From an uncultured Candidatus Saccharibacteria bacterium (GTDB lineage Bacteria; Patescibacteriota; Saccharimonadia; Saccharimonadales; Saccharimonadaceae), in the NCBI GenBank assembly GCA_927910745.1, contig CAKMNX010000028.1:11653-75652 (forward strand): 64,000 nt of DNA, written 5' to 3'. The position numbers and the translations under genes were made by a program. The notes beneath the pieces were generated by a model. That model searched no databases. It saw nothing but the letters and a program-made list of their open reading frames with translations, and was not told where the DNA came from. Of this stretch, positions 29,419 to 48,020 are shown piece after piece (within the stretch, counting starts at the first letter, position 1; each line of letters starts with the position of its first letter).

Positions 29419-29460
29419 CGTGGTCTAAAAAGCCACCCACTCAAAGTAAGAGTGGGTGGC
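29419..29460 (-). terminator. rho-independent terminator of eno
   Basis: Perfect 10-bp inverted repeat gccacccact/agtgggtggc. On the minus strand the hairpin is followed by TTTTT. Confidence 0.6.
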
Positions 29461-29489
29461 ATAGTAGTGCCGTGTGGCGAGGTAGGCTA

Positions 29490-30770
29490 CTACTGCTTGA
29501 ATGGCTGCGCAAGCGTGAGACTCTCGTCTGCTTCGGTAATGCGGAGTAGCTCGTTGTACTTCGCCACGCGGTCGGTGCGCGAGAGCGAGCCAGTCTTGAT
29601 CTGCCCACAGCCCAGGCCAACTGCCAAGTGGCTGATTGTGGTATCCTCAGTCTCGCCAGAGCGGTGACTCATCACGGTGCGCCAGCCAGCGTTTTGGGCA
29701 AGTTGCACGGCTTGGATTGTCTCGCTGAGTGAGCCGATTTGGTTGGGCTTGACGAGGAGTGCGTTCGCCGCGTCTTGGTCAATCGCTTGCTGGATGAGGC
29801 TTGTATTCGTGACAAGTAGGTCATCGCCCACTAGCTGGACGCGGTCGCCGAGGCGCTGGCGGAGCTGCTGCCAGCCAGCCCAGTCACCCTCGGCCAGGCC
29901 ATCTTCGATACTGACAATTGGGAATTCGTCGACAAGGGCAGCCAGCCAGTCGATCATCTCACTACTGGTCAGGCTCTTGCCTTCACACTTCAGCTCATAC
30001 CGGCCATCATGGTAGAACTCACTCGAGGCAGCGTCCATTGCAAAGACGACATCTGTGCCAACGGTGTAGCCAGCATTGGTAATCGCTTCGCTGAGCAAGG
30101 CGAGTGGCTCGCGGTTGCCCTGGCGGACGCGTGGCGCATAGCCACCTTCGTCGCCAACAGTGGTGGGGTAATCGTGTGCTTTGAGGACTTTAGCAAGAGC
30201 GTGGAAGATTTCGGTGCCCATGCGGAGCGTGTCTGCAAAGGTTGTCGCACCCTTGCAGATGATCATAAACTCTTGGATATCGGTCGCAAAGGCGGCGTGC
30301 GCACCACCGTTGAGAACATTCATCATTGGCAGGGGAAGACTTGGTGTGCTGTCAGTTTGCTCGGCAATGTAGCGCCAGAGTGGTTGCTGCTTGGCATGAG
30401 CAACAGCCTTGGCAGTAGCCAGGCTAACACTGAGGATGGCATTAGCACCGAGCTTAGACTTGTTATCTGTTCCATCAAGGGCAAGCATTGCATTATCAAT
30501 CGCTTGCTGGTCGCTCGCATCGTGACCCACCAGTGCAGGAGCGATAACGTCGTTAACGTGGGCAACTGCCTGGCTCACCCCTTTGCCAGTCCACTGATTG
30601 CCACCATCGCGTAGCTCTAGTGCTTCGCCCGCACCGGTACTTGCTCCGCTCGGGACAGCTGCTCGGCCTAGCGTGCCATCAGCAAGGATGACGTCCGCTT
30701 CGACGGTGGGGTTGCCGCGGCTGTCTAAAATTTGTCGTGCTTTTATGGTTTGGATAGAGTAGTTGTTCAT
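29490..30770 (-). CDS. eno: enolase (phosphopyruvate hydratase)
   Basis: [27 protein letters not shown]...SHRSGETED. The ORF-table N-terminal extension was rejected. Confidence 0.95.
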
Positions 30771-31009
30771 ATCTTCTAGTATACCATCGAATGGAAGGCG
30801 ATCGCTATTACCGTTGAAATAGCATGAATCAACTGCGAAAATTTTCATGCAAGACAAGGATATTGACAAAAGGTCATTTTGTAGATTCAAGCATTGTATT
30901 TGCTGATACACATGGTACAATATAATTACGGCAACGGTTAATGAAGCGGAGGGTGGCAGTAACCCTGCGTTCTTCGTTTCGCACCTACACAGTAAGGAGG
31001 GCTATTCCC

Positions 31010-31390
31010 ATGACATTCAAAAAAGTAGGTATCCTTAGCGTATTGGCAGTTGGCTCAATGGCGGCGGGATCTTTGCTGTTTAATACAGCACCAGCGTCGG
31101 CAGAGAGTTTCGGGCCGACCGCCAATGACAACGGTACGTCCGTTGTCCAATACTACGATGGGACGAAACTGTTTTGCGTTTCTGATGCAAACTACCCCGA
31201 CGGCACGCCTGGCACGACAGCCTTTACGGTTGCGCCAACCCAAGGTAATGGTCCCAGTTATGGCCGAATCCTTGGCGCTGGCGAGACTGGCTGTGTCAGT
31301 CTTGAGACAGCACCGGAGGGAGCAGTATATCGCTACTGGCTGTTGTCTCGCACCGATGGATCGGTGTACCAAGGCGATTTCGTTCGCTAA
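31010..31390 (+). CDS. small secreted protein (signal peptide)
   Basis: RBS aaggaggg precedes the ATG. Signal peptide MTFKKVGILSVLAVGSMAAG...ASA is followed by a 100-aa Cys-containing domain. Confidence 0.5.
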   Translation: MTFKKVGILSVLAVGSMAAGSLLFNTAPASAESFGPTANDNGTSVVQYYDGTKLFCVSDANYPDGTPGTTAFTVAPTQGNGPSYGRILGAGETGCVSLETAPEGAVYRYWLLSRTDGSVYQGDFVR

Positions 31391-31452
31391 ATAACTACTC
31401 ACTGAAATACCCGATATACCCAAAAACGAAAATGAAAACCCCCGTTGTCGCG

Positions 31453-31475
31453 GCCCCCTCCTGAGGGGGCTTTTG
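31453..31475 (+). terminator. rho-independent terminator
   Basis: GC-rich hairpin gccccctc..gagggggc followed by tttt. Confidence 0.6.
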
Positions 31476-31544
31476 GGACCTCAAATACGGAATGATTGGT
31501 AGACATATATAGCACTCGCGCCAATAGTGCCGTATAATGGAGGC

Positions 31545-32195
31545 ATGACAGGAACACTTATTATCAGCCGGCATGGCGAAAGCGAATGGAATTTACAAGG
31601 TAAATGGACAGGCTGGACGGACGTAAGCCTTACCGAAAAAGGTAAGAGCGATACGCGTCAACTCGGCGAGTTCTTGCGTGGTCGCACCATCGATGCGGTA
31701 TATACTTCGGCACTCAAACGGACACATGAGACACTTGATGCGTTGATGGAAGGTGCAGACAACCCAATCCGCTCAAGTGATGCCACGGTGGTGCACGCGT
31801 CTGAGCTTAACGAGCGTGACTATGGCGACCTAACTGGCAAGAACAAGTGGGAAGTCAAAGAAGAGATTGGCGAGAAGGCCTTTAATGGTATTCGGCGCGG
31901 CTGGGATTATCCTGTACCCGGTGGTGAGACGCTCAAGGATGTGTATGAGCGTTCGATCCCGTATTTTGAGTCAGAGATCTTACCACGGCTCCAGGCGGGC
32001 GAGACCGTATTGATTGTGGCGCATGGCAACACGATTCGTGCACTTATGAAGTACCTTGATCGAATCCCGGAGGAAGATATGGGTACAGTAGAGATGCCCT
32101 TTGGTCAATTACTTGTTTACACATTTGAGCCTGGCATGGCATATCCTACTGCGTGTGATGTGCTTAAAGCAGATATTGTACCGCCCAAGGCGTAA
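31545..32195 (+). CDS. gpmA: 2,3-bisphosphoglycerate-dependent phosphoglycerate mutase
   Basis: LIISRHGESEWN catalytic His motif, plus AHGNTIRAL. Confidence 0.85.
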   Translation: MTGTLIISRHGESEWNLQGKWTGWTDVSLTEKGKSDTRQLGEFLRGRTIDAVYTSALKRTHETLDALMEGADNPIRSSDATVVHASELNERDYGDLTGKNKWEVKEEIGEKAFNGIRRGWDYPVPGGETLKDVYERSIPYFESEILPRLQAGETVLIVAHGNTIRALMKYLDRIPEEDMGTVEMPFGQLLVYTFEPGMAYPTACDVLKADIVPPKA

Positions 32196-32329
32196 TTAAA
32201 TATTGCGATACGTTTTATAGCACACGAAGTTGATGCTTATGTGTGTTGCGTTTATATTTCTTGGATTGAACAACCGCAGGGTAGCCTTATACTTATGAGT
32301 GGGTACACTGGCTTTGATAGCAAGAACAG

Positions 32330-32359
32330 TAGACAAGCCGCCATATTGTGTGGTATGAT
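32330..32359 (+). promoter_or_regulatory. sigma70-like promoter for the tRNA-Pro pair
   Basis: -35 box tagaca, 18-nt spacer, and an extended -10 box (tgg tatgat). Confidence 0.4.
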
Positions 32360-32376
32360 GGCAAAGTCTTGTATCG

Positions 32377-32453
32377 CGGGGTGTGGCGCAGCTTGGTAGC
32401 GCGCACCGTTCGGGACGGTGAGGTCGCTGGTTCAAATCCAGTCACCCCGACCA
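32377..32453 (+). tRNA. tRNA-Pro (anticodon CGG)
   Basis: C1:G72 acceptor pair cggggtg/caccccg, anticodon loop ttcggga, and an encoded CCA. Confidence 0.85.
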
Positions 32454-32500
32454 TGTTTTGCTCCGGCAAAGAATGGTCGCCCGTGTGATATAAAACGTAT

Positions 32501-32576
32501 CGGGGTGTGGCGCAGTTGATAGCGCGCGCGGTTTGGGACCGCGAGGTCGCTGGTTTGAGTCCAGTCACCCCGACCA
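32501..32576 (+). tRNA. tRNA-Pro (anticodon UGG)
   Basis: Same acceptor stem as the first tRNA-Pro, anticodon loop tttggga, and an encoded CCA. Confidence 0.85.
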
Positions 32577-32592
32577 TATTTGTGAATTGTTT

Positions 32593-32623
32593 GATCTGGC
32601 TTGCGTGGCCAGATCATTTTTAA
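32593..32623 (+). terminator. rho-independent terminator after tRNA-Pro
   Basis: Hairpin gatctggc-ttgcgtg-gccagatc followed by atttttaa. Confidence 0.55.
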
Positions 32624-32896
32624 TAGATGTACGATGTTTAATCTGAATAGGAGATGTGGGTTGAGCTATCTTGACTAAACTGAATATCTTCCCGTGTACT
32701 ATAGAACGCGGCGTTTTGTTACAGTGACGTCGACTGAGATAGGAACGATGAGATCGCATGAGTTTACAGAATATAGAGTGAAATAGGAGAAAGCAAAGAA
32801 AAAACTAAAGAATAATCACCCCAAATAAAATCCTGTTGACGAATATTATAAATCTAACTTATAATAAGTACACATACAATAAAAGGAGAAAGTATA

Positions 32897-33286
32897 ATGG
32901 AATTTAGCTTTAGTTTAAAAATCAAAGCAGGAAAAGAAGATGTGTGGGAATACTATGCAAATATCGAAAAATGGTATGATTGGGAAGAGGATCTCAAAAA
33001 CATTACATTAAAAGATGGATTTAAGACTGGCTCATATGGAACGATGGAACTTGAGGGAATGCCTCCTATGGAATATCAACTTACTCGTGTGAAGCCTTTT
33101 GAAGAATTTTGGGATAAAACAGAAACTCCGTTTGGTGATGTTCTTTTCGGTCATCAGATTGTTGATAACAATGACGGAAGCGTTAATATAAAACATACGG
33201 TAGCTCTCGATAGTGAGGATAAGCAGCATTTGGAGTTTTTTAAGTCAGGTTTTTTCAGATGTTCCTCAGTCTATTGTTTATTCTAA
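32897..33286 (+). CDS. SRPBCC (Bet v1/polyketide-cyclase-like) family protein
   Basis: RBS aaaggagaaag precedes the ATG. 129-aa AT-rich ORF. The fold assignment is tentative. Confidence 0.4.
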   Translation: MEFSFSLKIKAGKEDVWEYYANIEKWYDWEEDLKNITLKDGFKTGSYGTMELEGMPPMEYQLTRVKPFEEFWDKTETPFGDVLFGHQIVDNNDGSVNIKHTVALDSEDKQHLEFFKSGFFRCSSVYCLF

Positions 33287-33372
33287 AAAGTTGTTTAGAA
33301 CGATAAGGTGGTTGCTGTTTGTTTACGTCAAAGTATAAAGATAATTCAGAAAAATCAACAGGATTGCTGTTT

Positions 33373-33762
33373 ATGAGAGTGTATAATAAATGGCACTTTC
33401 TGACAAAAAAGGAGTTAAAGAGAATAAATCTGACGCACCCTCAATTTGTTGTTTTAGCGTCTCTTGCGTATCTATCACAAAATGGCGACGAAGTTACACA
33501 AGTTATGATTTCAAAACTCTCAGGAATAGACGTAATGACGGTATCTCAAATATTGAGTTTGTTGGAAAAGCATGATTTTGTAAAAAGAAAAGAACATTCA
33601 AGAGACACAAGAGCAAAGGCTGTTACTGTGAATAAAAAAGGAGAAGAAGTATTGCAAAAAGCTGTTCCGTTAATTGAGCAGATTGATGAATTATTCTTTG
33701 GAAAGTTGGCTAGTGACGAAGAGCAATTTAAACACTTTCTTAGTAGATTAAATGAAAAATAA
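33373..33762 (+). CDS. MarR family transcriptional regulator
   Basis: Winged helix-turn-helix: LTHPQFVVLASLAYL...ISKLSGIDVMTVSQILSLLEKHDFVKR...DTRAKAVTV. Confidence 0.7.
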   Translation: MRVYNKWHFLTKKELKRINLTHPQFVVLASLAYLSQNGDEVTQVMISKLSGIDVMTVSQILSLLEKHDFVKRKEHSRDTRAKAVTVNKKGEEVLQKAVPLIEQIDELFFGKLASDEEQFKHFLSRLNEK

Positions 33763-33824
33763 AATGTAGTAGAATTACGCACCATAGCATCAGTTTATGC
33801 TGTCGTGTATAATGACCAGTAGTT

Positions 33825-34478
33825 ATGGTAGCGCAGTCTTCTCATCCAGCAAAGTCGAAGGAGCAGCCCAAGCAGCCACAGCCGCGGCGGTTTGCGCTTT
33901 TGGTGACGCATTTATGCGCGTCGATGGGGTATCTCTTTTGCTTGCTGCTGTGGGTGTGGTGTGCAATGCAGCTGCTTTACCCATATATCACGCGAGATAA
34001 GGCGCTTTGGGTTATACCGGAGCCGCACGGCCAGCCAGAGATCACGCTTCCACAGGGCATGCCTTCAGGGGCGGACTTGCCGCAGCCAGTAGCGATTGCA
34101 CTCGTGGCAATCATCACCATCGTTATGATTGGGTGTGGCCTCTATATGCTGGTCATGCTACCGCGCAATATAGCTAAAATAGGCGAGCGCGTAGTAAAAA
34201 AGACAACGAAAGCAGTTGCACCCTTAGCGACGAAAACCCACCAGCCAGTGAGCAAGAAGCGGCGCACCATCCTCAATACGCGCATTGCGGCAGGCATTAA
34301 GGCGCTGGCTTGTGTCGTGCCGGTGATTGTCCTAATGATCTGGCCAGGTGCGGCACCACTGTCGCAGCATGTGGTACGGATCGTTGCAGTGTTTTGTGCA
34401 GGCATGGCATCCTTGAGCTTCTTGCTCCAGTATGCGCTAGCACGGATGCTTGGCGTGCCTGATACACTCCTCAAGTAA
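33825..34478 (+). CDS. hypothetical membrane protein
   Basis: Four predicted TM helices. No recognisable family. Confidence 0.4.
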   Translation: MVAQSSHPAKSKEQPKQPQPRRFALLVTHLCASMGYLFCLLLWVWCAMQLLYPYITRDKALWVIPEPHGQPEITLPQGMPSGADLPQPVAIALVAIITIVMIGCGLYMLVMLPRNIAKIGERVVKKTTKAVAPLATKTHQPVSKKRRTILNTRIAAGIKALACVVPVIVLMIWPGAAPLSQHVVRIVAVFCAGMASLSFLLQYALARMLGVPDTLLK

Positions 34479-34500
34479 TTATTATCTTCTCCTGATATAA

Positions 34501-34529
34501 CAATACCTCTGCTCTTGGCAGAGGTATTG
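34501..34529. terminator. bidirectional terminator
   Basis: 12-bp perfect inverted repeat caatacctctgc/gcagaggtattg. Confidence 0.5.
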
Positions 34530-34541
34530 TGCATTTGAGTG

Positions 34542-34781
34542 CTATCCTTGCGGCGGGAAGGGATCCTTCTTGGGCGGGACGGTATCGGCATCGCGATACT
34601 GGGCGGTGCCGTCGGCGCGCTGGATCCTGAGCTCACCACCACCGTGTTGGCGCATGTAGCGCCTGGTTTGGTCGATGACTTCCTCCTGAGTCGTGCCCAC
34701 AAAGTGGACGCGGCCAGTGCCGTCGGCGACTGCTTGGTAGCCTTTGAGTTTGTTACCGCTAATCGTAAAATTTTGTGCCAT
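34542..34781 (-). CDS. DUF2188 family protein
   Basis: RBS GGAG precedes the ATG. ...YQAVADGTGRVHFVGTTQEEVIDQTRRY...ELRIQRADG matches the DUF2188 consensus. Confidence 0.55.
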   Translation of the reverse strand: MAQNFTISGNKLKGYQAVADGTGRVHFVGTTQEEVIDQTRRYMRQHGGGELRIQRADGTAQYRDADTVPPKKDPFPPQG

Positions 34782-35099
34782 GGAGTACTCCTCGTGCGGC
34801 TTTAACGATATTGGTATGCAAGGTGCCAACCCTGCCTCCTTCTAGCCTAATACAAGATTGCTGATGAGGCAAATTGGTGCTACGAGAGAATAACGAATTG
34901 AAGTTATTTAAAGTAGGAAAATAATGACTTGATATATCATGATTAGGATTAATGGTGATATATGAGTGCCTCTATGTAGCAGAAGTGTAGCATATAACAC
35001 TAGTGGCTCATACTGATAGGTAAAATCGCTATGACATATATGCGATACGGCCAAAGTGTGCTATAAATATAAGCATAAGAGTATTTCGGAGGGGAAATA

Positions 35100-37067
35100 A
35101 TGAAACGATGGGGATTGAGCGTCGTGCTGCTATGCGGTGCACTCTATGGGCTCGCGATAGCTCCGCCAGTGCGGGCGAATACGTCGCTGTGTGGTACAAA
35201 TGATCAGCTGTTCAGAGCGGTGCGTCGGCCACTAGCGACTGACTCAGCACCAGCAGCGCGTGCGATGGCATGGCTCAAACAGATGATGGAGCCAAAGCAT
35301 AGCCCAGGTGATGGTAGTACCATCACGCCAGCACAAGCCTATGGCTTTGACTACCAAGCAAAGGTGAGCGGGCGCTTTACGCTTGCGCACCCACGACAAA
35401 CAGAAAGTGCGACACCGCTCACGGTTCCTAATACTGCGCATGCCGCCGAAGGTTACCGCGGCATAGTAAAAGGAACAGCACCAACTGGGGCTAATCCACG
35501 TGAAGTGCGGGCCTATCTCTACAGTGATGCTGAATATGAGCAAGCGACCGTTGCGCCAGCAGTGGTACAGCCAGATGGCACATGGACGCTCGATCTCTCA
35601 CCTGTCAATCCGGCATTTGCGGGGTCATGGCACTTCCGGTTATATGACAAAGTGACGGGGCAGCAGATTGGCGAGAGCTGGCCGCGACCTGTTACGTATA
35701 AGAATCTGGAGGTGCAGCTCTACGCGGTATCTGATAAAGAATATCTCCAAGCCACGCAGCCAGCCCAGGCAGATAATACCTTTAGTTTCGATGCAGTAGG
35801 TAAGGGGCATAAATTAATTCGCCTCTATGATACAGCAACTAAAACTATCATTGCTGAGTATTTCAAGCCAGAGCTGGTGGGGCTGATTCGCTCGTATGAG
35901 TATGCGCCAGGCCAAGATGGCTATGGTACACCGCGTGAGTCGTACAGCTATGTGTATGATCAGTCGCTGGCGCTACTCGTGGCGATTGGTGCGGATGATC
36001 GAACAATGGCGGATAAGCTCGTGCATGGCCTAAGCGCAATCCAAGTCAAGATAGGTGAGCAGAAGGGGGCGTTTCCGGCAAGTGCACATCAGCTTGATTA
36101 TACAGTAATCCAGCAGCCGATTTATTATACTGGTGGTATCGCCTTCGTGCAGTATGCGCTCATCCGCTATATGGAAAAATATGGTGACCAGCAAGGGGTG
36201 CGCCAGATGATTCTCGATACCTTCCGTTGGCTTGAGACAATGAAGACGACGACTGGCGATGCTGCCGGGTTATTCCGTGGCGGGGTGAAGATTGATAATG
36301 GCGTCAAGAAGGATATTGCATGGCATGCCACCGAGCACAACACTGACATGTGGCATGTGTACGAGCGAGCAGCCCGCGTGCTGGGTGATAAGCAGTATGC
36401 CCAGAAGGCAGACGAACTTGCCAAAGTGACAGTAGCGAAACTATGGAATACCTCTGAAGGGCGCTTTAACCAAGGGTATAACGACAGTAGTAAGGCGCTC
36501 GATACAACAAGCTGGGGTGCGATTTTCCTCAATGCGATTGGTGAATACGACAAAGCTAAGCAAGCACTCGCTCATACTGCCATCTACAAAACAACCGATG
36601 GTGCGGCAAAAGGCTATACACCGTATTTGACAGGTAATTACGTGCCAACCGTATGGTTTGAAGGGACGTATGGTGTAGCACAGGCGCATACTATCGCTGG
36701 GGACACGGCCACAGCACGGGCGATCTTGGCAGACACGTACCCAGCGCAGCGGCCCAATGGTGCATGGCAGTACGCGTCTAAGGCCGATCTGCTAAATGAA
36801 CTAACTAATGCAAACTCAGTGGCATCGACAGCGTGGTATATGTTGGCGGCTAGCTACCCAGAAGCGATTTGGTCGGAGTGCCGCGCGGCACTGGCGACAA
36901 ATCCACTCGATCCAAATAAACCCAACCAGCCCACTCAGCTAGCCAAGCCAAGCCAATTCCACGGCCTCTTAGCCGATACCGGCATATCGCTCTGGCAGTT
37001 TGTTCTTGTGACAGCGGCGTTGCTTGCTGGTGGGGTGCTACTGGCGCACTATGTGCGACGCGCATAA
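35100..37067 (+). CDS. secreted cell-wall-anchored protein with LAXTG-type sorting signal (LADTG), possible glycoside-hydrolase-like alpha/alpha barrel
   Basis: RBS ggagggg and a signal peptide. The C-terminus reads LADTG, then a hydrophobic helix, then RRA. That is a class E sortase-type sorting signal. Confidence 0.55.
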   Translation: MKRWGLSVVLLCGALYGLAIAPPVRANTSLCGTNDQLFRAVRRPLATDSAPAARAMAWLKQMMEPKHSPGDGSTITPAQAYGFDYQAKVSGRFTLAHPRQTESATPLTVPNTAHAAEGYRGIVKGTAPTGANPREVRAYLYSDAEYEQATVAPAVVQPDGTWTLDLSPVNPAFAGSWHFRLYDKVTGQQIGESWPRPVTYKNLEVQLYAVSDKEYLQATQPAQADNTFSFDAVGKGHKLIRLYDTATKTIIAEYFKPELVGLIRSYEYAPGQDGYGTPRESYSYVYDQSLALLVAIGADDRTMADKLVHGLSAIQVKIGEQKGAFPASAHQLDYTVIQQPIYYTGGIAFVQYALIRYMEKYGDQQGVRQMILDTFRWLETMKTTTGDAAGLFRGGVKIDNGVKKDIAWHATEHNTDMWHVYERAARVLGDKQYAQKADELAKVTVAKLWNTSEGRFNQGYNDSSKALDTTSWGAIFLNAIGEYDKAKQALAHTAIYKTTDGAAKGYTPYLTGNYVPTVWFEGTYGVAQAHTIAGDTATARAILADTYPAQRPNGAWQYASKADLLNELTNANSVASTAWYMLAASYPEAIWSECRAALATNPLDPNKPNQPTQLAKPSQFHGLLADTGISLWQFVLVTAALLAGGVLLAHYVRRA

Positions 37068-37073
37068 CAGTCA

Positions 37074-37847
37074 CTACTTCAACCCACGAAAAGTACTTGA
37101 TTTGACGTTATCATACATCGCGTTGTCTTGAAGGAGTTTCTTCATCGTTTTCACATCGTCGGGCTGTCCTGCCACGAGATATTGAGCCTTGTTGCCATGT
37201 CTATCAATCGCCTGCTTGAAGCGTTCTTGGCTTTGAGAAAGGCTAGCACTGGTCTCATAAGTCATATTGGCTGTTTTGTTTGCTAGCTCTGAGAGTTCCT
37301 TGTCAAAGACCGTTACCCCCTTGTCTAGGTGATAGAGCATGATAGGACGTTTACCGGCCCACTGCCTGACAATTGGTCGCATTGCTGAGATACCGACATC
37401 AGACGCGAAGCAAACCAGCGGCTCGTTACCGTCTGTAACTGACAAAGAAGATTCCAGCCAACTCATCTTGACCTGACTACCTGCTGGTAGGCTCGTCAAA
37501 GCTTTTTTATAAGGACTACCGCTATTGTGGGTTAGGATAATAATTTCATTATCCTCAGGACTAGAGGCGATACTCAGCCAACGACTTGTCTGTTCATCCT
37601 TATGATCATTCTTTTCACCACCAGATGCCGTACTGGGTAGCGTGATCTTGGCATAAGAGCCCGCCTTCCATGTCATAGTATCAGGCTTTGCCAGGCGAAT
37701 GACATGAAGGTCTCCACTAGGGTTTTCGATGGATTTGACCGATAACGTTTGGCCTCTCCCTAAGTAGGCGATGATGCCCCAAGTAATAATGCCTATAACC
37801 ACAAGAATAGCTATAACGATGATAACCATTTTTTTACCCCTTTTCAT
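37074..37847 (-). CDS. membrane-anchored FNR-like FAD/NAD(P)-binding oxidoreductase
   Basis: N-terminal TM helix. RWLSIASSP resembles the RxYS FAD-binding motif of ferredoxin-NADP reductase-like proteins. Confidence 0.4.
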   Translation of the reverse strand: MKRGKKMVIIVIAILVVIGIITWGIIAYLGRGQTLSVKSIENPSGDLHVIRLAKPDTMTWKAGSYAKITLPSTASGGEKNDHKDEQTSRWLSIASSPEDNEIIILTHNSGSPYKKALTSLPAGSQVKMSWLESSLSVTDGNEPLVCFASDVGISAMRPIVRQWAGKRPIMLYHLDKGVTVFDKELSELANKTANMTYETSASLSQSQERFKQAIDRHGNKAQYLVAGQPDDVKTMKKLLQDNAMYDNVKSSTFRGLK

Positions 37848-38427
37848 TATGTAAAACACCCCTCGCAAAGGTAGTGGCAAGTACTTCTAGCGTCCTACCG
37901 ATACCCGGAAAATCGCCTTCGGTAATATGTATATCCATGTAGTAAAACAAATTATAAACCTGTAAAATATCCTGAATTTTTTCCTCTGAATATCCTTCTG
38001 CCACCATACGATTAGTAAAGGTTTCGACCAAAAACTGATGAAAGGTATTGGTGGCTTTACCTTTGCCCGAAGAATAGTGGCTGCGCAGCGTGCGAGAGAT
38101 GGCTGGGTTATGCCATTCCGCCAGGATTTTATTGGATGAAACCAGGCTACGTGACTGTTCAAAAATCTGCCTCACAAGTTCAACCAAGTCCTGCTGCCAA
38201 TCGATATCATCCATCATCGCCTGGCGAACGCGGCTATTCTCCTCAACGTACACATCCAGGAAGATAGCTTCCTTGCTGTCGTAGTAGTTGTAAAAAGAAC
38301 CAACTGCTACGCCAGCTTGTTTAGCGATTTCTGAGATCCCGGCCTCTTTATAACCCTTTTTTGAGAAGACATCATAGGCGGCCGTTTTTAATGCTTGCTT
38401 CTTGTCCAATGCTCGTAACTCTCTCAT
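37834..38427 (-). CDS. TetR/AcrR family transcriptional regulator
   Basis: HTH region ...AAYDVFSKKGYKEAGISEIAKQAGVAVGSFYNYYDSKEAIF. Confidence 0.75.
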   Translation of the reverse strand: MRELRALDKKQALKTAAYDVFSKKGYKEAGISEIAKQAGVAVGSFYNYYDSKEAIFLDVYVEENSRVRQAMMDDIDWQQDLVELVRQIFEQSRSLVSSNKILAEWHNPAISRTLRSHYSSGKGKATNTFHQFLVETFTNRMVAEGYSEEKIQDILQVYNLFYYMDIHITEGDFPGIGRTLEVLATTFARGVLHNEKG

Positions 38428-38559
38428 TAATAATATTCTGAATGAATAAATTTTTATATTCATTCATATTATATGAAAACAACAAGAAGGCTGTCAATAG
38501 AGGGATCTGCTTGATTATTCTTTTCGATTGTCAACCCGATTGACGAGGCTATCTAATTG

Positions 38560-39189
38560 TCATTGGCTCTGTACCTTATCCACCAGCTTCGTTAGCTTCA
38601 CGCCATCGTACATCCAGTGGTCGGCGCCGCGGTATGCGCCGGAGTTGTTGACTTCGCCGCGCTGGGTGTAGATCAGGCGGGTGAGGGCAGATAGACGCCA
38701 GGTTTTGCCGCCGTAGGATGCTTCGCGTGGGCCGGCTACAACGGCGGTGATAGCTGGGTCTTTGATGAAGCAGATGGTTGCGCCCTTTTCGATACCTTTT
38801 TTGTAAAAGCTAAAGCGCTGGTCTTGCTGGTGCGCGGTGGTAACGGCCTCGAACGAATCGGCTTTGCTGGTGGATTGAGCTGGCTTGGGGTAAATCTGCG
38901 TGCCATCAAGGGCGAGCAGCAGCCGCTGGATAAGATATTCATCGAGCGCAAAGAATTCGCTCCGGCCAATGCGGTGTTTGCTAAAGACTTCGTGCAGAAG
39001 CTGCTCCTTTTTGTGGTAATTATCTACCTCAATAGCAACCAGCCGCTGCAGCCCAGTAATATTAGAATAGCCGTTGGATTCGAGGTATTGCATACGCGCC
39101 TCGAAGCGGTCGGTGCTGGTCTTGCCAATCTTGACCAAGCCATCAATGGCACTGGTCATAACATAAATCACTCCGCGTGGCTCGGACAT
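38560..39189 (-). CDS. T5orf172 (GIY-YIG-like) + DUF4357 domain protein
   Basis: [20 protein letters not shown]...RMQYL is the T5orf172/MUG113 signature. It is followed by the conserved C-terminal domain usually paired with it near R-M loci. Confidence 0.5.
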
Positions 39190-39290
39190 GGTTTTATTGT
39201 AGCAGACTGTGGGGTGGGGGAACAACCGACGACGATAAGGTGCTCAAACCAGCCTCGTTAATCAGGCTTGCTTGCAGTATAATGAGGGGC

Positions 39291-40876
39291 ATGACAACAG
39301 GGGATAATCGTAAAGAACAAGAACGCAGCAAGCTTCACAATACTATTTGGAAGATTGCCAATGACCTGCGCGGATCAGTCGACGGCTGGGACTTTAAGTC
39401 GTATGTGCTAGGCTTCTTATTTTACCGGTTTATATCGGAAAATCTAGTCAATTATATTAATGCTGAAGAGCGTAAAACTGGTGTGGCTGATTTTAATTAT
39501 GCTGAACTGAGCGATGATCAGGCGGAGTTTGGTCGTGAGGATACAGTAAACGACAAAGGATTTTATATTTTACCAAGCGAGCTGTTTGAGAATGTCCGTA
39601 AGCGCGCCAAAAATGACGAAAATTTGAACGAAACACTCAGTAAAATATTCCGTAACATTGAGCAATCAGCCAAAGGTTTTGAGAGTGAGGATGATTTTCG
39701 CGGGTTGTTTGACGACTTGGACGTTAATAGCAATAAACTTGGTCCGACCGTCGCCAGGCGCAATGAGCGATTAGTGAAATTGATGAACGCCATTAGTGAA
39801 TTAGAGCTCGGTAAGTTTGAGGACAATACGATTGACGCTTTTGGCGACGCATATGAGTATCTGATGACCATGTATGCCGGTAATGCTGGCAAATCCGGAG
39901 GTGAGTTCTTCACGCCGCAAGAAGTGAGCGAACTTTTGGCAAAAATTACTGTTGTTGGCAAAACCTCGGTAAACAAAGTGTATGACCCGGCAGCAGGCTC
40001 CGGTTCATTGCTGCTAAAATTTGCGAAAGTCTTGGGCAAGGATAATGTCAGGCAAGGCTTTTACGGGCAAGAGATTAACATCACAACCTATAATCTTTGC
40101 CGTATCAACATGTTCCTGCATGACATTAATTATGAAAAATTTAACATTGCTCACGGCGATACGCTGAAGGATCCGAAGCACTGGGATGATGAGCCGTTTG
40201 ATGCGATTGTCTCAAATCCGCCATATAGTATCAATGGGACGGCGATAGCAACCCGATGCTCATTAACGATCCGCGCTTCAGCCCGGCTGGAGTATTGGCG
40301 CCGCGCAGTAAGGCTGATTTAGCATTCACAATGCATATGTTGAGCTGGCTCAGCGAGAGCGGTACGGCAGCGATTGTTGAATTTCCTGGTGCACTATATC
40401 GCGGTGGGGCTGAGGTAAAAATTCGCAAATACCTGGTAGATAGTAATTATGTTGATACCGTCATCCAATTGCCGCCAGATTTGTTCTTTGGTACGACAAT
40501 TAGCACCTGTATTCTTGTTTTGAAAAAGAGCAGGGCGATGAACGATATATTATTTATCGATGCCAGCGCTGAGTTTGTGCGAAAAGGCAATAAGAACAAG
40601 TTGAGCGAGGAAAATCGTCAGAAGATCCTGGACAGTTTCACTGATCGGCAAAATATCGACTACTTTGCGAAAGTTGCTACTTATGAAGATGTCGCCGCCA
40701 ATGACTACAACCTATCAGTTAGTTTGTATGTTGAGGCGGAAGATACACAAGAAGTAATTGATATCACTGAGCTCAATGCTGACATTGCAAAGATCGTAGC
40801 TCGCCAGTCGGAACTACGGACGGAAATTGACGCTATAGTTGCAGATCTCGAAAAGGATAATAATAGTGCAAGATAA
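39291..40876 (+). pseudogene. hsdM: type I R-M DNA methyltransferase subunit HsdM, interrupted by a 1-nt deletion at about 40233-40236
   Basis: HsdM N-terminal domain, AdoMet motif ([10 protein letters not shown]) and NPPYS motif. After NPPYS the frame fails. Inserting one base restores [23 protein letters not shown]..., which continues as ORF 40256-40876. Confidence 0.8.
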
Positions 40877-41213
40877 CGGTAATATCGTTGTATATGCTGA
40901 CGATAACGGCAAGCCGCAAGTTGATGTTCGGTTTCAGGATGAGACGGTTTGGCTGACGCAAGCGCAACTGGTTGAGTTATATCAGTCGAGTAAAGCTAAC
41001 GTTAGCGAGCATATAAAAAATATCTTTGACGAGGGTGAACTTGACCGCGCAGCAACTATCCGGAAATTCCGAACAGTTCGAACTGAGGGTGATCGTCAGG
41101 TAGAACGTGAATTAGAATACTATAATCTCGACACTTGCAAACTGAGTACCAAGCAGGCTAAAGAAAAAATGCTAGCTGGGTATCGTAAGTATAAGGCGAA
41201 AAAACTTGAGTAG
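40866..41213 (+). CDS. RhuM-family (COG3943) protein, N-terminal fragment only
   Basis: GTG start overlaps the hsdM stop. IVVYADDNGKPQVDVRFQDETVWLTQAQLVELYQSSKANVSEHIKNIFDEGEL matches the RhuM N-terminus. The ORF stops after 115 aa, so it is truncated. Confidence 0.55.
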   Translation: MQDNGNIVVYADDNGKPQVDVRFQDETVWLTQAQLVELYQSSKANVSEHIKNIFDEGELDRAATIRKFRTVRTEGDRQVERELEYYNLDTCKLSTKQAKEKMLAGYRKYKAKKLE

Positions 41214-41276
41214 CGTGGAAGAGGATTATCTGGAGAATATTAAGAAAACAGCTAAAAAGTTGAAAGGTAAAATAAA

Positions 41277-43507
41277 ATGAGTATTCAGAAAGTAAAAATT
41301 AATTTTGAGCATTGTTATGGCATTCATAAGCTATGCAGCAACTTTGACTTTTCTAAATCTAATATGCAGCTAATTTATGCTCCGAACGGCACTATGAAAA
41401 CGTCTTTTGCAAAAACTTTTAAGGATATGAGTGATCCTAGAGGAAAAACTAAACCTCACGATCAGCTCAATGAAACTTTGCAGCCGACTTGCAAAGTTAT
41501 GGTTGAAGACGACAGCGGAAGTGAGCGACAGATAACACCTGATGAAATTAAGGTCATTAAGTCTTACGATGAATCTGCGTTCAAGTCAGAAGAGGCCATC
41601 CTCACCCTACTAGCTAACAAAGAGATTCGCCAACAATATGTTGATATTTTTAAAGAATTAGACAATGAGAAAAAATCTGCATTAAGTCCCTTAAAAAAGA
41701 TCACTGGCAGTAGTAATTACGAGCAAGAGATAATTGGTGCTTTTTCTGATCCAGGAACCAAAAAACTTTCGATATTTGAAGTTTTGGCTACCATAGTAGA
41801 CGACGTAAAACAGTCAAATAGTACCTTTGATTTTGTTTATAATCATGTATTTGATCCTAAGGGGAAAGTGCGTGACTTTCTAGATGAAAATTATGACTTG
41901 TTGCAAAAATATAGTGAGAAATATAATGAACTGTTATCAAGCTCGCAATTCTTTTCAAACAACGGAGAGCGAGCTTTTGGTACGATTGAAGCAGGCGCTC
42001 TTCGTGATTCAATAAAAGGCGATGAATATTTCGAGTCGGGTCATAAACTCTCGTTAAAGATGAGACTATGGTTGACAGCGCCGATAAACTGTCTGAGATT
42101 ATCGATGATGAGATTAAAAAAGTTTTTGATAATCAAGAAATTAAAGATACTTTTGACAAGATTGACAAGAAGCTACAAGGAAACCAAGAGCTAAGAAATT
42201 TTAAAAAAGTTATAGAGAAAGATAAAACTCTGATTGCCAAACTGACTAATTATAATGAGTTTCGTAAGGAAGTTTGGTATAGCTTTCTAAAACAAGTCGA
42301 GCCTGGGGTCAGTGGTTTAGTTGAAAACTATAATACGAAAAAGCCAGATATTGAGACGATTGTGGCTGCGGCGAATGGCTCTAAGGGCTTGTGGCACGAT
42401 ACTGTAAAAGAGTTTATGACTCGATTTACAGGCTTACCTTTTTCTTTTGGTATTGAAAACATAGGTGATGCTATTTTAGGCAAAGATATGCCGACTATTA
42501 CATACCGTTACGGCAATAAATTAGTAGACCAAAGCGTGCTAACAAAAGACATTCTAAGTCAGGGAGAGCGACGTGCTTTCTATCTATTGAATGTAATATT
42601 TGACATAAAATCACGAGAAAAAGAAAATAAAGAAACTCTATTTATTATAGATGACATTGCCGACTCGTTTGACTATAAGAACAAGTACGCTATTATTCAG
42701 TACTTAAACGACTTAAACAAGAGCGAAAATTTCAAAAGCATTGTTTTAACTCATAATTTTGATTTTTACCGTACACTACAAGAGCGAATACTAGCAAGCG
42801 GTAAACGGGATTATTCGTTTATAGCAGAAAGAAATAATGACGAGATTAGATTATTGCCGGGCGGGAAGAAGGTGATTACCAACCCTTTTAATAAATGGCG
42901 TAATAAATGTAATAGGAAAGAAAAGCTACTTGTTGCCGCCATACCGTTCATACGCGAGCTATATAACTATCAAAAAGGGAATGAATCGCAAGAATATTTA
43001 TTGCTAACACACCTACTTCATGACAAAGAAGCTGACAGTCAAAATAAGATACCAGCTACCTATGATATAAAACTAAGAGATATTGAGTATGTCTTTGATG
43101 GTATGTTGAATGTGCAGTTTAAGTTTCCGAATAAGACTAAAAAAGTTATAGACATTATTTTTAGTGTTGCCGATCAGATCCAGCAAGATCCTCATGACGG
43201 CATAAGCCTAGAGAATAAGATAGTATTGGCTATGGCGACTCGACTCTTGGCAGAGCAAAAAATCCTTATTTATGTAGAGCGTCCGTCAAACATTAGCAAA
43301 AACCAATTCTGGGAATTATACAATGTGTTTCGGAATCAATTTGGAAGTGATGAAACTAAAAAAGGCATATTAGAGGTTCTAGAACAGGTCAATATCATCA
43401 CTCCGGCAAATATCCACATTAATTCATTTATGTACGAGCCAATTATTGACATTGGTATTGATGAGTTAGTTTGTCTATATGATCGAGTAAAGGCTTTGCA
43501 TGAGTAA
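41277..43507 (+). pseudogene. ABC/SMC-like P-loop ATPase (AAA_13/AAA_15-like) embedded in the R-M locus, with an apparent 1-nt frameshift at 42056-42058
   Basis: Walker A (IYAPNGTMKTSF), ABC signature (LSQGERRAF), Walker B (LFIIDDIADSFD) and H-loop (VLTHNF). Two overlapping ORFs are in adjacent frames. A4 in place of A3 would join them. Confidence 0.6.
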
Positions 43508-44649
43508 AATTGACGATTTGATTAAAGAGCTGTGCCCGGATGGGGTGAGGTTTGTTAGAGTTGGCGACGTGGCTGTAATAGGTACAGGCAGATCTGATAG
43601 AAAGGATGCCGTTGAAAATGGCCAATATCCATTTTATGTAAGATCAAAAGTAGTATCTCGAATAGATAGGTACTCATTTGATGAGGAAGCAATTATTATA
43701 CCTGGAGAAGGTGGAGTTGGTGATATATTTCATTATGCGAATGGAAAATATGACCTTCATCAGCGAGCTTATAGAATTGTATTCATAACCAATGAAGTGA
43801 ATACGAAATACGCTCTGTACTATTTTATGAGTCTCTTTAAGAGTTTTATAACCCGAAAAGCGGTGAATGCAACGGTTACATCCATAAGAAAACCAATGAT
43901 AGAGGATTTCCGCATCCCCGTTCCACCTCTTGAGGTTCAAAAAGAGATTGTGCGTGTGCTAGACTCGTTTACAGAGCTAGAAGCAGAGCTAGAAGCAGAG
44001 CTAGAAGCGAGAAAGAAGCAGTACGAATACTATCGTAATGACTTGTTGACATTTGACGATGATGTAATGTGGAGGTCGATGGGTGAGATATGTATTTTTC
44101 AAGGATAGAGTAGCGTCTGATGAGCTTACTGCAGATAATTATGTAGGTGTTGACAATCTTCTTAAAGACAAAAAAGGTAGGACGATATCAAGTTATGTGC
44201 CAGAGTCAGGAATCTGGACAAAATTTGTATCAGGGGATATTCTCATTGGAAACATAAGACCATATTTGCGTAAGATATGGTTGGCGGATATTGAAGGTGG
44301 CACAAATGGTGACGTCTTAGTGTTCCATATTTCAAAAGAATATACGAAAAGAATAACACCTAAATTTCTTTTTCATTGCTTAAGTTCAGAAAGGTTCTTT
44401 ATGTTTATGAATAACACCTCAAGGGGCGCAAAGATGCCTCGCGGAGATAAGAAAGCTATCTTAAACTTTATGATACCGATTCCATCACTATCCGTACAAC
44501 AGCAAACCGTCTCTATCCTTGACAAATTCGAAAAACTTACCAACGATATTTCTGTTGGTTTGCCGGCGGAGATTGAAGCCCGCCGCAAGCAATACGAGTA
44601 TTACCGCAATAAATTACTAACCTTCAAAGAGTTGGAGTGTTCAAAATGA
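43500..44649 (+). pseudogene. hsdS: type I R-M specificity subunit HsdS (two target-recognition domains), frames offset by 1 nt at the T5 run 44095-44099
   Basis: Each half carries a TRD plus a conserved helical spacer ending RKKQYEYYRN(D/K)LLTF. The first ORF already runs into the start of TRD2 (W...GEICIF) before it stops. This argues for one gene with a frameshift rather than two half-genes. Confidence 0.65.
43974..44009 (+). repeat. 3 x 12-bp perfect tandem repeat (gagctagaagca) encoding ELEA x3 in the hsdS central conserved spacer
   Basis: Read directly from the sequence. Confidence 0.9.
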
Positions 44650-47600
44650 AATATGATGTAATTGCTGAAAATAGCGACAGCACCGTCGTCAGTGACTATG
44701 TCTCGCCTTACCAACGGGCGACGAGTTATCAGAGCGAGGCAGAACTAGAGCAGGAATTAATTAAGCAATTGCAGGCGCAGGCGTATGAATATTTGCCGAT
44801 CAAGAGTGAGAGTGATTTAATACGGAATCTGCGCACGCAGTTGGAGAAGCTGAATAATTACACATTTACCGATGCTGAGTGGAAGCGGTTCTTCGCAGAG
44901 CGGATCGCTAATGGCAATGAAGATATTGCTGACAAGACCTTCAAGATTCAGGAAGACAGTACGCAACTATTGCAACGCGATAACGGCGAGGTGATTAATA
45001 TTCGCCTGCTAGATAAAACAAACATTCACAAGAACTGCTTGCAGGTGATCAATCAATACGAGGTGTCGGGTACGCGGGATAACCGTTACGACGTGACGCT
45101 GCTGGTGAATGGTTTGCCGCTGGTGCATATCGAGCTAAAAAGGCGCGGCGTGCCTTTGCAAGAAGCCTTCAATCAGATCAATCGCTATCAGCGGGATAGT
45201 TTTTGGGCGGGTAGCGGGTTGTTTGAACATGTGCAGCTGTTTGTGATTAGTAATGGCACGCATACAAAATACTACAGTAATACGACGCGCTGGCAGCATA
45301 TCAATGAGGCGGGTAAATCAGATTCGCATCGCAGTAAAAAGACCAGCAATAGCTTTGAGTTTACCAGTTGGTGGGCGGATGCTAATAATCGCCCGATTAC
45401 CGATTTGATAGATTTTACGGCGACATTTTTATCTAAGCATACGCTGTTGAATGTGCTGACGAAGTACTGCGTGTTTACCAGCGATAAATTATTGCTGGTG
45501 ATGCGCCCATACCAAATTGTGGCGACTGAGCGTATTTTGAATCGCATCCAGATCGCCACAAATTACAAAAAGCTCGGTACAACTGAGGCTGGCGGTTATG
45601 TGTGGCACACCACAGGTAGCGGTAAGACGTTGACGAGTTTTAAGACGGCACAGCTGGCGAGTAAACTGGACTATATTGATAAGGTGCTTTTCGTGGTTGA
45701 CCGCAAAGACCTCGATTACCAGACGATGAAAGAGTACGATAAGTTTCAGGAGGGTGCAGCGAATAGCAATACCAGTACGCGGGTTCTGACGAGGCAATTG
45801 GGCGATCCAAACGCTAAAATTATCATTACGACCATCCAGAAGCTAGATACATTTATCAAGCGCAATCAAGGACACAAGGCGTTTGATGATCACATAGTTA
45901 TTATCTTTGATGAGTGCCACCGTTCGCAATTTGGCGATATGCATCATGCTATTACCAAAAGTTTTCGTAATTATCATTTGTTTGGCTTTACTGGCACGCC
46001 GATATTTGCTGACAATGCGTCAAGTGGTGGGCGAGTTGATCTACGAACCACCGAGCAGGCGTTTGGTGATAAACTGCATACCTACACCATAGTTGATGCG
46101 ATTACTGACAAGAATGTGTTGCCGTTTCGGATTGACTATATTCGTACGATTCGCGAGGCGGACGAGGTCGATGATCAACAGAAAGTACGAGATATTGATC
46201 GTGAGCAGGCATTGAATGCTCCAGAGCGCATTCGCAATGTTGTGCAATATACCCGTGACCACTTTGACCAAAAGACGATGCGTCATGCTAAATCTTATGC
46301 ATTTACGCGGCTGATGAATGTTCATGAAGTTGCGTCAGCGCGAAATAGAGCGGCGGAAGAGATAAAAGATAAAATTCGGCTGAGCGGATTTAATTCAATT
46401 TTTGCAGTGAGTTCAATTGATACAGCAAAACTTTATTATAACGAGTTTAAACGTCAGCAGGCTGAGCTTCCTGAAGTTAAACGCCTGAAAATCGCTACAA
46501 TTTATAGCTATGGAGCGAACGATCCTGATCTGGAAATGGATGGTATGGATGATGAGAATTCGGAAAATACCGACGGACTAGACATCTCGTCACGTGATTT
46601 TCTGGAGGGCGTAATTCGTGATTATAATGTAACATTTGGCACGAACTATGATGCCAGCTCCGAGCGATTCCAGAATTACTATAAAGACGTGAGTCTGCGG
46701 ATGAAGAATCGAGAGATTGATTTGTTAATCGTGGTGAATATGTTTTTGACAGGGTTTGATGCCACGACGTTGAATACGCTGTGGGTTGATAAAAACTTGC
46801 GGATGCACGGGCTGATTCAGGCGTATTCGCGGACGAATCGTATCCTTAATTCAATTAAAACCTATGGAAATATCGTGACATTTCGTAATTTGGAGAAGGC
46901 GACTAACAAAGCTTTAGCACTCTTTGGCGACAGAGATGCGAAGGGTGTTGTATTGCTGCGGCCTTTCCGGGACTATTATGAGGGCTATGAGGATGCTGGC
47001 AAGAAAACGCCGGGTTATGTTGATTTGATCGCGGAGCTAAAAGATAAATTTCCAGTGGGCGAGATAATTACTGGTGAGCAAGAACAAAAGGAATTTGTGA
47101 AGCTATATGGTGCAATTCTGAGGCTGAAGAATATTCTGTCTAGCTTCGATGAGTTTATTGGCCAAGAGATTTTGAGCCAGCGAGATGTGCAAGATTATCA
47201 CAGCATGTACATTGACCTCTATAATGAACTGCGACCGAAATCTGATGAGAGTAAGGAGAATATCAATGACGATTTGGTGTTTGAGATGGAACTCATCAAG
47301 CAGGTTGAAATAAATATTGATTACATCCTGGAATTGATTCGGCAGTATCATGATAGCCATTTGAATAATAAAGAGATTTTAGTCGATATTGATAAAGCCG
47401 TTAACTCATCTATGGAACTGCGTAATAAAAAGGATTTGATTGAGCAGTTTATCGCCTCACTCACGGTTGATAGCTCAGTATATGGTGACTGGAAGGAGTT
47501 TGTGAAGTCAAGAAAAATCAAAGAGCTAGATCAGATTATTGATGATGAAAAACTAGATAAAAATGCGACATATAGGTTTGTTGAAAATGCTTTTCGCGAC

Positions 47601-47759
47601 GGATATATACAATCAACCGGCACAGGTCTATCGCGGATACTGCCACCAATGTCGCGTTTTGCGCCTAGTGGAGAGCGTAGCAAAAAACGTGAAACAGTGC
47701 TGGAAAAATTGAGAGATTTCTTTGATCGATTCTTTGATGTCTCGAATGAAAGCTTATAG
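44646..47759 (+). CDS. hsdR: type I restriction enzyme R subunit HsdR (intact)
   Basis: N-terminal nuclease region, DEAD-box helicase motifs (TGSGKT, DECHRS) and a C-terminal helical domain. The start overlaps the hsdS stop. Confidence 0.9.
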   Translation: MKYDVIAENSDSTVVSDYVSPYQRATSYQSEAELEQELIKQLQAQAYEYLPIKSESDLIRNLRTQLEKLNNYTFTDAEWKRFFAERIANGNEDIADKTFKIQEDSTQLLQRDNGEVINIRLLDKTNIHKNCLQVINQYEVSGTRDNRYDVTLLVNGLPLVHIELKRRGVPLQEAFNQINRYQRDSFWAGSGLFEHVQLFVISNGTHTKYYSNTTRWQHINEAGKSDSHRSKKTSNSFEFTSWWADANNRPITDLIDFTATFLSKHTLLNVLTKYCVFTSDKLLLVMRPYQIVATERILNRIQIATNYKKLGTTEAGGYVWHTTGSGKTLTSFKTAQLASKLDYIDKVLFVVDRKDLDYQTMKEYDKFQEGAANSNTSTRVLTRQLGDPNAKIIITTIQKLDTFIKRNQGHKAFDDHIVIIFDECHRSQFGDMHHAITKSFRNYHLFGFTGTPIFADNASSGGRVDLRTTEQAFGDKLHTYTIVDAITDKNVLPFRIDYIRTIREADEVDDQQKVRDIDREQALNAPERIRNVVQYTRDHFDQKTMRHAKSYAFTRLMNVHEVASARNRAAEEIKDKIRLSGFNSIFAVSSIDTAKLYYNEFKRQQAELPEVKRLKIATIYSYGANDPDLEMDGMDDENSENTDGLDISSRDFLEGVIRDYNVTFGTNYDASSERFQNYYKDVSLRMKNREIDLLIVVNMFLTGFDATTLNTLWVDKNLRMHGLIQAYSRTNRILNSIKTYGNIVTFRNLEKATNKALALFGDRDAKGVVLLRPFRDYYEGYEDAGKKTPGYVDLIAELKDKFPVGEIITGEQEQKEFVKLYGAILRLKNILSSFDEFIGQEILSQRDVQDYHSMYIDLYNELRPKSDESKENINDDLVFEMELIKQVEINIDYILELIRQYHDSHLNNKEILVDIDKAVNSSMELRNKKDLIEQFIASLTVDSSVYGDWKEFVKSRKIKELDQIIDDEKLDKNATYRFVENAFRDGYIQSTGTGLSRILPPMSRFAPSGERSKKRETVLEKLRDFFDRFFDVSNESL

Positions 47760-47786: not shown

Positions 47787-48020
47787 ATGAAAATCCCCGC
47801 TCGCATCAAACCCAACTCCCGCCACCGCGAAGAAGTCGTGGTGGGTAGCGACGGCACGTATATCATCTACACCAAGGCGCCAGCGATTGAGGGCCGGGCG
47901 AATGCGGCGGCTATTAAGCTGCTGGCTCAGCATTTTGGCGTAAGTAAAAGCCAGGTTCGACTGTTGCGCGGGGCAACATCAAAACATAAGGTCTTTGATA
48001 TCGATAGTGTAGTTCTATAA
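47787..48020 (+). CDS. DUF167 (YggU) family protein
   Basis: ...TKAPAIEGRANAAAIKLLAQHFGVSKSQVRLLRG matches YggU. Confidence 0.55.
   Translation: MKIPARIKPNSRHREEVVVGSDGTYIIYTKAPAIEGRANAAAIKLLAQHFGVSKSQVRLLRGATSKHKVFDIDSVVL

Follow-up and report, generated by a model that had tools for sequence, protein, structure and literature searches.

The type IC restriction-modification (R-M) enzymes EcoR124I and EcoR124II carry two and three TAEL repeats, respectively, in their specificity subunit HsdS and recognize GAAN6RTCG and GAAN7RTCG, and hybrid enzymes with a changed repeat number shifted their specificity as predicted (PMC3874165). A comparable relation was found for the type IC system NgoAV of Neisseria gonorrhoeae, whose central HsdS region naturally contains zero to three copies of the four-residue unit LEAT and for which PacBio methylomes revealed GACN6TGC with one copy and GACN7TGC with two (PMC6789123). 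In their survey of phase-variable type I systems, Atack et al. pointed to in-frame tracts beside the TAEL coiled coil as a probable way of changing the spacer that had not been studied (PMC7383803). Here, we analysed a stretch of 64,000 nucleotides (hereafter the window; contig CAKMNX010000028.1, positions 11,653 to 75,652) from an uncultured Candidatus Saccharibacteria bacterium, in which the hsdS gene contains three in-frame 12-bp units encoding (ELEA)3 between its two target recognition domains (TRDs). The number of units varies among otherwise identical alleles, and by analogy with EcoR124I/II and NgoAV we consider it probable that the tract is a slippage-prone in-frame repeat that alters the DNA site of a type IC system of oral Saccharibacteria (TM7).

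The array is in frame with the open reading frame (ORF) 43500-44108, the product of which reads ELEAELEAELEA followed by RKKQYEYYRNDLLTF. Two copies of GAGCTAGAAGCA (43974-43985 and 43986-43997) precede one copy of GAGCTAGAAGCG (43998-44009). Identity across the three units is 35/36, the sole mismatch being a synonymous change from GCA to GCG (A to G) at the last base of the third unit. The first-pass annotation, which had called the array a perfect tandem of three, was thus right about three 12-bp copies at this place but not about their perfection. Tandem Repeats Finder (TRF) reported a longer array (43972-44021, period 12, 4.2 copies), as the three units are followed by a degenerate copy on the 3' side. 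Among tandem repeats with a period of 7-30, three or more copies and no more than one mismatch, the hsdS array is the only one in the window, and a mean of 0.01 such repeats was expected by chance (200 first-order Markov simulations of the window). No further copy of the 12-bp unit was found elsewhere in the 64 kb, and none of 100 shuffles reached three matches. Variation by an inverted-repeat shufflon or through another copy of hsdS was also considered and rejected, since no inverted repeat of significance was found in the window and the unit has no copy outside the array.

The units lie at the position that the TAEL repeats occupy in EcoR124. In a phmmer alignment to 7bst_A, they fall column for column on TAELTAEL of EcoR124 HsdS, and an allele with four units shows a 4-residue insertion relative to EcoR124I at the TAEL site. 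The linker from the conserved F to RKKQY measures 13 amino acids (aa) in both the window allele and the EcoR124I chain and 17 aa in the 4-unit allele, the latter being the length expected for EcoR124II. An AlphaFold2 (AF2) model of P0001, a 383-aa homologue with three units and 93% identity, has a mean predicted local distance difference test (pLDDT) score of 89.8 and places the units midway in a single 39-residue helix between the TRDs (residues 144-182, pLDDT ~86-95). A Foldseek search with this model returned EcoR124I HsdS (7bst_A) as the best solved structure, at a template modelling (TM) score of 0.76. The location of the repeat in a helical spacer between the TRDs, as given in the first-pass annotation, is therefore borne out by both alignment and model.

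By every sequence-level criterion that we tried, the system is an EcoR124-like type IC R-M system, and its tract likewise conforms in sequence to the repeat-length variation of specificity known from EcoR124 and NgoAV. The top PDB match of HsdS is EcoR124 HsdS (7bst_A, E 2e-33), with both conserved regions aligned. HsdM, taken in its intact version from the related metagenome contig L002, matches EcoR124 HsdM (7bst_D, E 3e-184) over residues 10-521, and HsdR matches EcoR124I HsdR (2w00, 4bec) over its full length (E ~6e-255, 852 bits). The Pfam domains of HsdR are EcoR124_C (6.7e-69), HSDR_N, SWI2_SNF2 and a T1R_D3-like domain. With EcoR124 subunits as best solved relatives of all three proteins, the earlier assignment of the gene as hsdS holds. 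The IC-type motif RKKQYEYYR occurs at both places in the HsdS of the window and is shared by many of the 120 listed homologues, and a Neisseria HsdS (P0048, 53% identity, ...FTELEATLEAELAL...) is also among the homologues.

Type IC genes are arranged in the order hsdM, hsdS, hsdR. The operon in the window keeps this order with two genes inserted (hsdM, a 115-aa gene, a 743-aa gene, hsdS, hsdR; Table 1). The likeness to EcoR124I/EcoR124II and their relatives EcoDXXI and EcoPrrI, all from enterobacterial plasmids, includes the homology of all three subunits, the gene order, the equal linker lengths and a 12-bp in-frame unit of four residues at the same site of the central helix (L-T-A-E there, L-E-A-E here). 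In addition, EcoPrrI carries prrC inside its locus, much as the window operon carries the 743-aa gene for a defence-type ATPase. The differences are a chromosomal location in Saccharibacteria, which belong to the candidate phyla radiation (CPR), instead of an enterobacterial plasmid, the unit ELEA instead of TAEL, a range of one to six units compared to two or three, and the two extra genes between hsdM and hsdS.

The main evidence for a variable tract comes from closely related DNA. By exact look-up of HsdR, we obtained five metagenome contigs (L001-L005), of which L001, L002 and L003 have four units (HsdS of 387 aa) and L004 and L005 have three (383 aa). In the alignment, the two forms differ in length by exactly one 12-bp unit, and the hsdS genes of L002-L005 are identical to that of the window except for the unit number and a frameshift of the window, which is treated below. 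Compared to the window, L001 shows 19 single nucleotide polymorphisms (SNPs) clustered at 43736-43920, in the distal part of TRD1 only and with 7 amino-acid changes, while the operon is nearly identical elsewhere; this cluster resembles a small patch of recombination or a segment undergoing diversification within one TRD.

A 23-nt pattern consisting of the exact flank and the first unit retrieved 103 metagenome stretches and 26 species-representative genomes, and all 26 genomes belong to Candidatus Saccharibacteria. Removal of shortened tracts and duplicates left 116 distinct alleles, which contain one unit (1 allele), two (4 alleles), three (61 alleles), four (43 alleles), five (5 alleles) or six units (2 alleles). 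All 285 internal units are identical (GAGCTAGAAGCA), and 104 of the 116 alleles end with the unit GAGCTAGAAGCG. If internal units slip repeatedly, one would expect just such a pattern, with uniform internal units and one fixed variant at the end. Unit number is polymorphic in 7 of 15 recurrent TRD combinations (3/4 four times; 4/5, 2/4 and 5/6 once each). Four pairs of alleles (L002/L004, L023/L093, L020/L067 and L052/L055) are one unit apart with no difference in 1,120 flanking nt, and a fifth pair has a single mismatch in the flanks; therefore, the tract changes no more slowly than point substitutions build up in the gene. Homologous proteins of other origin that share the conserved flanks carry one (P0033), two (P0030, P0031), three (P0001) or four units (P0067). 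The first-pass annotation had proposed to count the units in related strains, and their number does vary, with three or four in near-identical contigs and one to six in the population. An exact look-up of hypothetical alleles with one to six units gave no record, and the known 383- and 387-aa alleles are equally absent from the collection searched. In one contig (L088:548-640), an 11-nt deletion joins the last unit directly to the degenerate copy behind it, so that GAGCTAGAAGCA runs into GTATGAG. The deletion would cause a frameshift and represents either a rare slippage event that inactivates the gene or a mistake of the assembly.

Assemblers can err on tandem repeats, and four contigs stop within the tract (L043, L079, L082, L125), so that copy-number differences could in principle reflect collapse or expansion of the repeat during metagenome assembly. 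The chance of this appears close to negligible. With 36-48 nt, the tracts stay below the usual length of reads and assembly k-mers, independent samples and assemblers agree within a lineage (four units in both L002 and L003, three in both L004 and L005), and the single proteins of other origin likewise carry one to four units.

If the tract acts as the TAEL repeats do, each ELEA unit would add four residues, or roughly one turn, to the helix keeping the two TRDs apart, and units would be gained or lost by replication slippage or unequal recombination. One unit more or less would make the non-specific spacer of the bipartite recognition sequence 1 bp longer or shorter, and the altered spacer would result in a new restriction and methylation specificity. 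Judged by the linker lengths of EcoR124I/II, the 3-unit allele of the window would read a shorter, N6-like spacer and the 4-unit sister alleles a longer, N7-like one. The step of 1 bp per unit is the solid element of this prediction and should hold here as in EcoR124I/II and NgoAV. Some points weigh against the proposal or narrow it. The absolute spacer lengths (N6/N7) are guesses, since TRD geometry also matters. The search pattern demanded the exact flank and the first unit, which makes the allele tally ascertainment-biased. The usual k of SPAdes is 55, and the two 6-unit counts are less secure, as their 72-nt tracts (contigs L052 and L095) exceed it. Three and four units together make up 104 of the 116 alleles, which suggests constraint and not free variation in full-length alleles. 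Switching within a clone may follow from the same mechanism, but all unit variation seen was between samples and none within one clone. Finally, hsdM and hsdS are both frameshifted in the window, so that the system cannot work as assembled.

The predominance of three and four units would likewise be expected with a narrow tolerated range if the polymorphism were functionally neutral, the helix accepting 13 or 17 residues, the recognition sequence staying unchanged and the tract being a mutable low-complexity linker. Full-length alleles indeed have nearly always three or four units, so that their central linker measures 13 or 17 residues, and no length change is seen in the distal partner helix, whose linker is 17 aa in 94 of 94 measurable full-length alleles whatever the unit number. 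However, one four-residue unit corresponds to exactly 1 bp of spacer in both homologous systems that were measured (PMC3874165; PMC6789123), and the ELEA units align at that very site. Recurrent independent unit changes on identical backgrounds, together with the extreme TRD diversity, rather fit diversifying selection on specificity. A neutral linker thus seems improbable to us, and an effect of the unit number on the DNA site is the preferred reading.

The diversity of the TRDs themselves is large. When TRD-coding DNA was clustered at 97% identity, TRD1 fell into at least 56 types and TRD2 into at least 64, all attached to one central region that is conserved at the DNA level. This diversity spans the loci L017-L145, comprising 26 Saccharibacteria species representatives and ~100 metagenome contigs. 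Judged from these sequences, TRD shuffling is extreme and the locus is a hotspot of specificity diversification.

Natural half-size hsdS genes, which encode one TRD plus the central helix with two to six units, account for 16 of 113 complete ORFs (L021, L028, L033, L039, L044, L052, L055, L066, L070, L076, L083, L086, L096, L105, L123 and L129). They terminate with ...LLTFNERE(RE) at a conserved stop, the exception being L129, which ends with ...LLTFKEA before its stop. Five or six units are present in 5 of the 16 half-size genes versus 2 of the 94 full-length alleles (Fisher p = 6e-4), and these small numbers suggest that homodimeric half-subunits tolerate longer helices. Such tolerance may arise because both helices of the coiled coil would lengthen together, while in a full-length subunit only one does. 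How the coiled coil accommodates a turn added to one helix only is a structural question raised by Loenen et al. (PMC3874165). The natural half-genes resemble EcoR124I-NT and the half-HsdS from Tn5 truncation of EcoDXXI, and the 202-aa fragment encoded in the window has the same architecture; unlike these, the natural Saccharibacteria half-genes end at the conserved ...LLTFNERERE stop. Based on the engineered examples in E. coli (PMC3874165), the natural half-genes may well be active and may have palindromic specificity.

In a wider sense, (ELEA)n could serve as a population-level molecular ruler and contingency locus in oral Saccharibacteria, with graded spacers for one to six units atop more than 50 interchangeable TRDs at one syntenic type IC locus and with half-size homodimers that tolerate longer tracts as both helices lengthen together. 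We regard this extended view as rather unlikely in its full form. If it were true, the alleles would form a natural series for studying how a one-sided helical insertion fits the HsdS coiled coil, and the locus would be a main diversifying defence and barrier to DNA uptake in oral Saccharibacteria.

The first-pass annotation had combined the repeat with a nearby frameshift. In the window, hsdS is split into the ORFs 43500-44108 and 44083-44649, while the gene is intact (383 or 387 aa) in all five near-identical contigs and none of these has the frameshift. Behind the break the frame reaches a stop codon at 44106-44108, and the C-terminal half runs on in another frame to 44649. Altogether, four 1-nt deletions break three operon genes of the window (hsdM, the ATPase gene and hsdS), and none of the five relatives carries any of them. 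Look-ups with two housekeeping proteins gave no record, but that with the 655-aa neighbouring gene provided further reference DNA, and one contig, Ga0111559_1000045 of JGI (L146), reaches further upstream than the other relatives. Compared to this contig, the window has two 1-nt T insertions at 33236 and 33274, 38 nt apart, which break the 3' end of an unrelated 135-aa gene in a low-GC segment. Over 28930-47051, the window differs from its relatives by ~3 SNPs but by six one-base indels. Five of the six lie in A or T runs of at least 3 and the sixth is a single T that became TT; there are two close pairs (2 nt and 38 nt apart). The spread of the indels fits a uniform per-A/T-run model, with 2.5 expected versus 4 observed from hsdM to hsdS, and with this fit a targeted inactivation of the R-M genes is unsupported.

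If the frameshifts are real, the R-M system is dead in the source strain. The locus could then be a decaying pseudogene cluster in this genome, with true frameshifts in hsdM, the ATPase gene and hsdS and the repeat as a relic without current function; deletions in three genes of one operon and their absence from five near-identical contigs are in agreement with this. On the other hand, the ratio of ~3 SNPs to 6 indels, the bias to A/T runs and the uniform spread are the signature of consensus errors, two of the six indels fall in the unrelated gene at 33.2 kb, and hsdR as well as the compared high-G+C neighbour genes are intact in the window. We therefore consider a decaying cluster possible but doubtful. 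The frameshifts are probably consensus errors of an error-prone assembly or non-specific decay and not part of a switch.

A programmed function of the frameshift is far less likely still. It would act as an ON/OFF or a full-length/half-size switch similar to the poly-G tract of NgoAV, where a frameshift in a homopolymer further downstream cuts HsdS short at about residue 201 and leaves a functional half-subunit (PMC6789123), and the 202-aa half-HsdS of the window would form a homodimer reading a palindromic site. The shortened product does retain TRD1 and the entire central helix, engineered and Tn5-truncated type IC half-subunits act as homodimers (PMC3874165), and half-size genes occur naturally in the Saccharibacteria population. 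However, NgoAV has a long phase-varying poly-G tract and an active truncated protein, whereas the window has two separate contractions in short A/T runs, and T5/T6 and A2/A3 tracts are too short for classical phase variation. In addition, hsdM is also split (~40233), so that no methyltransferase would be made, the natural half-size genes stop elsewhere, at the conserved ...LLTFNERERE end, and the tract length is intact in each of the five relatives. The 202-aa shortened product, looked up exactly, gave no record. The frameshift noted before is thus real in the sequence, but its connection to the repeat mechanism is probably not, given the short A/T runs, the relatives without it and the other genes that are hit. 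A slippage-prone in-frame repeat remains the preferred explanation for the variation of the locus. In this respect it resembles the systems surveyed by Atack et al. in having a repeat tract inside hsdS as a source of variation, but most tracts of that survey give ON/OFF frameshifts (PMC7383803), whereas the ELEA tract is divisible by three and always in frame.

The mechanism as such is textbook knowledge from EcoR124I/II and NgoAV, and current understanding is not overturned. New are the Saccharibacteria host, the unit sequence, the range from one to six units and the link with half-size subunits. In the literature on Saccharibacteria together with hsdS or type I R-M, as far as our incomplete coverage reached, the repeat was not described, which is weak evidence for novelty. 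The same repeat mechanism would operate, and often, in ultra-small epibiotic bacteria of the CPR. Saccharibacteria are naturally competent (PMC10187176) and are now becoming genetically tractable, so that unit counts (three versus four, up to six) and TRD shuffling bear on the prediction of restriction barriers for transforming DNA. The natural series of one to six units in full-length and half-size subunits is a ready test set for the coiled-coil question of Loenen et al. (PMC3874165) and also touches the in-frame repeats left unexamined by Atack et al. (PMC7383803).

Table 1 Features of the type IC operon and of the hsdS repeat in the window
Feature	Position	Strand	Remarks
hsdM	39291..40876	+	528 aa in relatives; TIGR00497 hsdM, 760 bits; broken in window, A3 -> A2 at ~40233
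115-aa gene inside operon	40866..41213	+	PADLOC candidate defence family PDC-S05, E 1e-35
743-aa ABC/SMC-like ATPase gene, between hsdM and hsdS	41277..43507	+	PADLOC PDC-S46, E 6e-220; broken in window, A4 -> A3 at ~42056
hsdS, specificity subunit	43500..44649	+	TRD1, central helix, TRD2, distal conserved helix; Pfam Methylase_S on both halves
Central conserved region of HsdS	43929..44045	+	~codons 144-182; one long predicted alpha-helix containing the units; homologous to the EcoR124 TAEL-repeat helix
Variable 12-bp tract	43974..44009	+	3 in-frame units (GAGCTAGAAGCA x2, GAGCTAGAAGCG) encoding (ELEA)3
hsdS frameshift site	44095..44102	+	TTTTTCAA in window, TTTTTTCAAA in all five relatives; T6 -> T5 and A3 -> A2, net -2
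Distal (C-terminal) conserved region of HsdS, partner helix	44485..44649 (start approximate)	+	...LDKFEKLTNDISVGLPAEIEARRKQYEYYRNKLLTF
hsdR	44646..47759	+	Intact, 1037 aa; EcoR124_C domain; protein 100% identical in five metagenome contigs

Besides its PADLOC family, the 743-aa ATPase has weaker PrrC-, AbiLi- and RecF-like matches. The pair of the 115-aa and 743-aa genes is kept in L001-L003, and the ATPase gene is kept in L004 and L005 too. With a G+C content of 36-43%, the operon differs from the background of ~52%. The flanks at 38.3-38.6 kb and 48-54 kb have 90-92% identity to contigs of Candidatus Saccharibacteria metagenome-assembled genomes (MAGs) from oral samples, so that an oral member of the group is the most likely source of the window. 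Queried against collections of plasmids and E. coli genomes, hsdS gave distant single-TRD matches only (~71% identity over 21% of the query) and no related locus. We also rejected a phage origin, as the flank-plus-unit pattern is absent from viral contigs.

Upstream of the operon lies a T5orf172/MUG113-domain gene on the minus strand (38560-39225, PADLOC PDC-S57), and downstream a 77-aa PF1765-like gene (47787-48020). In related Saccharibacteria contigs (90-92% identity), the site of the operon between these flanking genes and a gene for a polysaccharide deacetylase is syntenic. Further away, two neighbouring tRNA-Pro genes with CGG and TGG anticodons (32377-32576) lie beside the low-GC segment (~40% GC, 32-34 kb), possibly a further small island, and a tRNA-Lys gene is found at 3791-3867.

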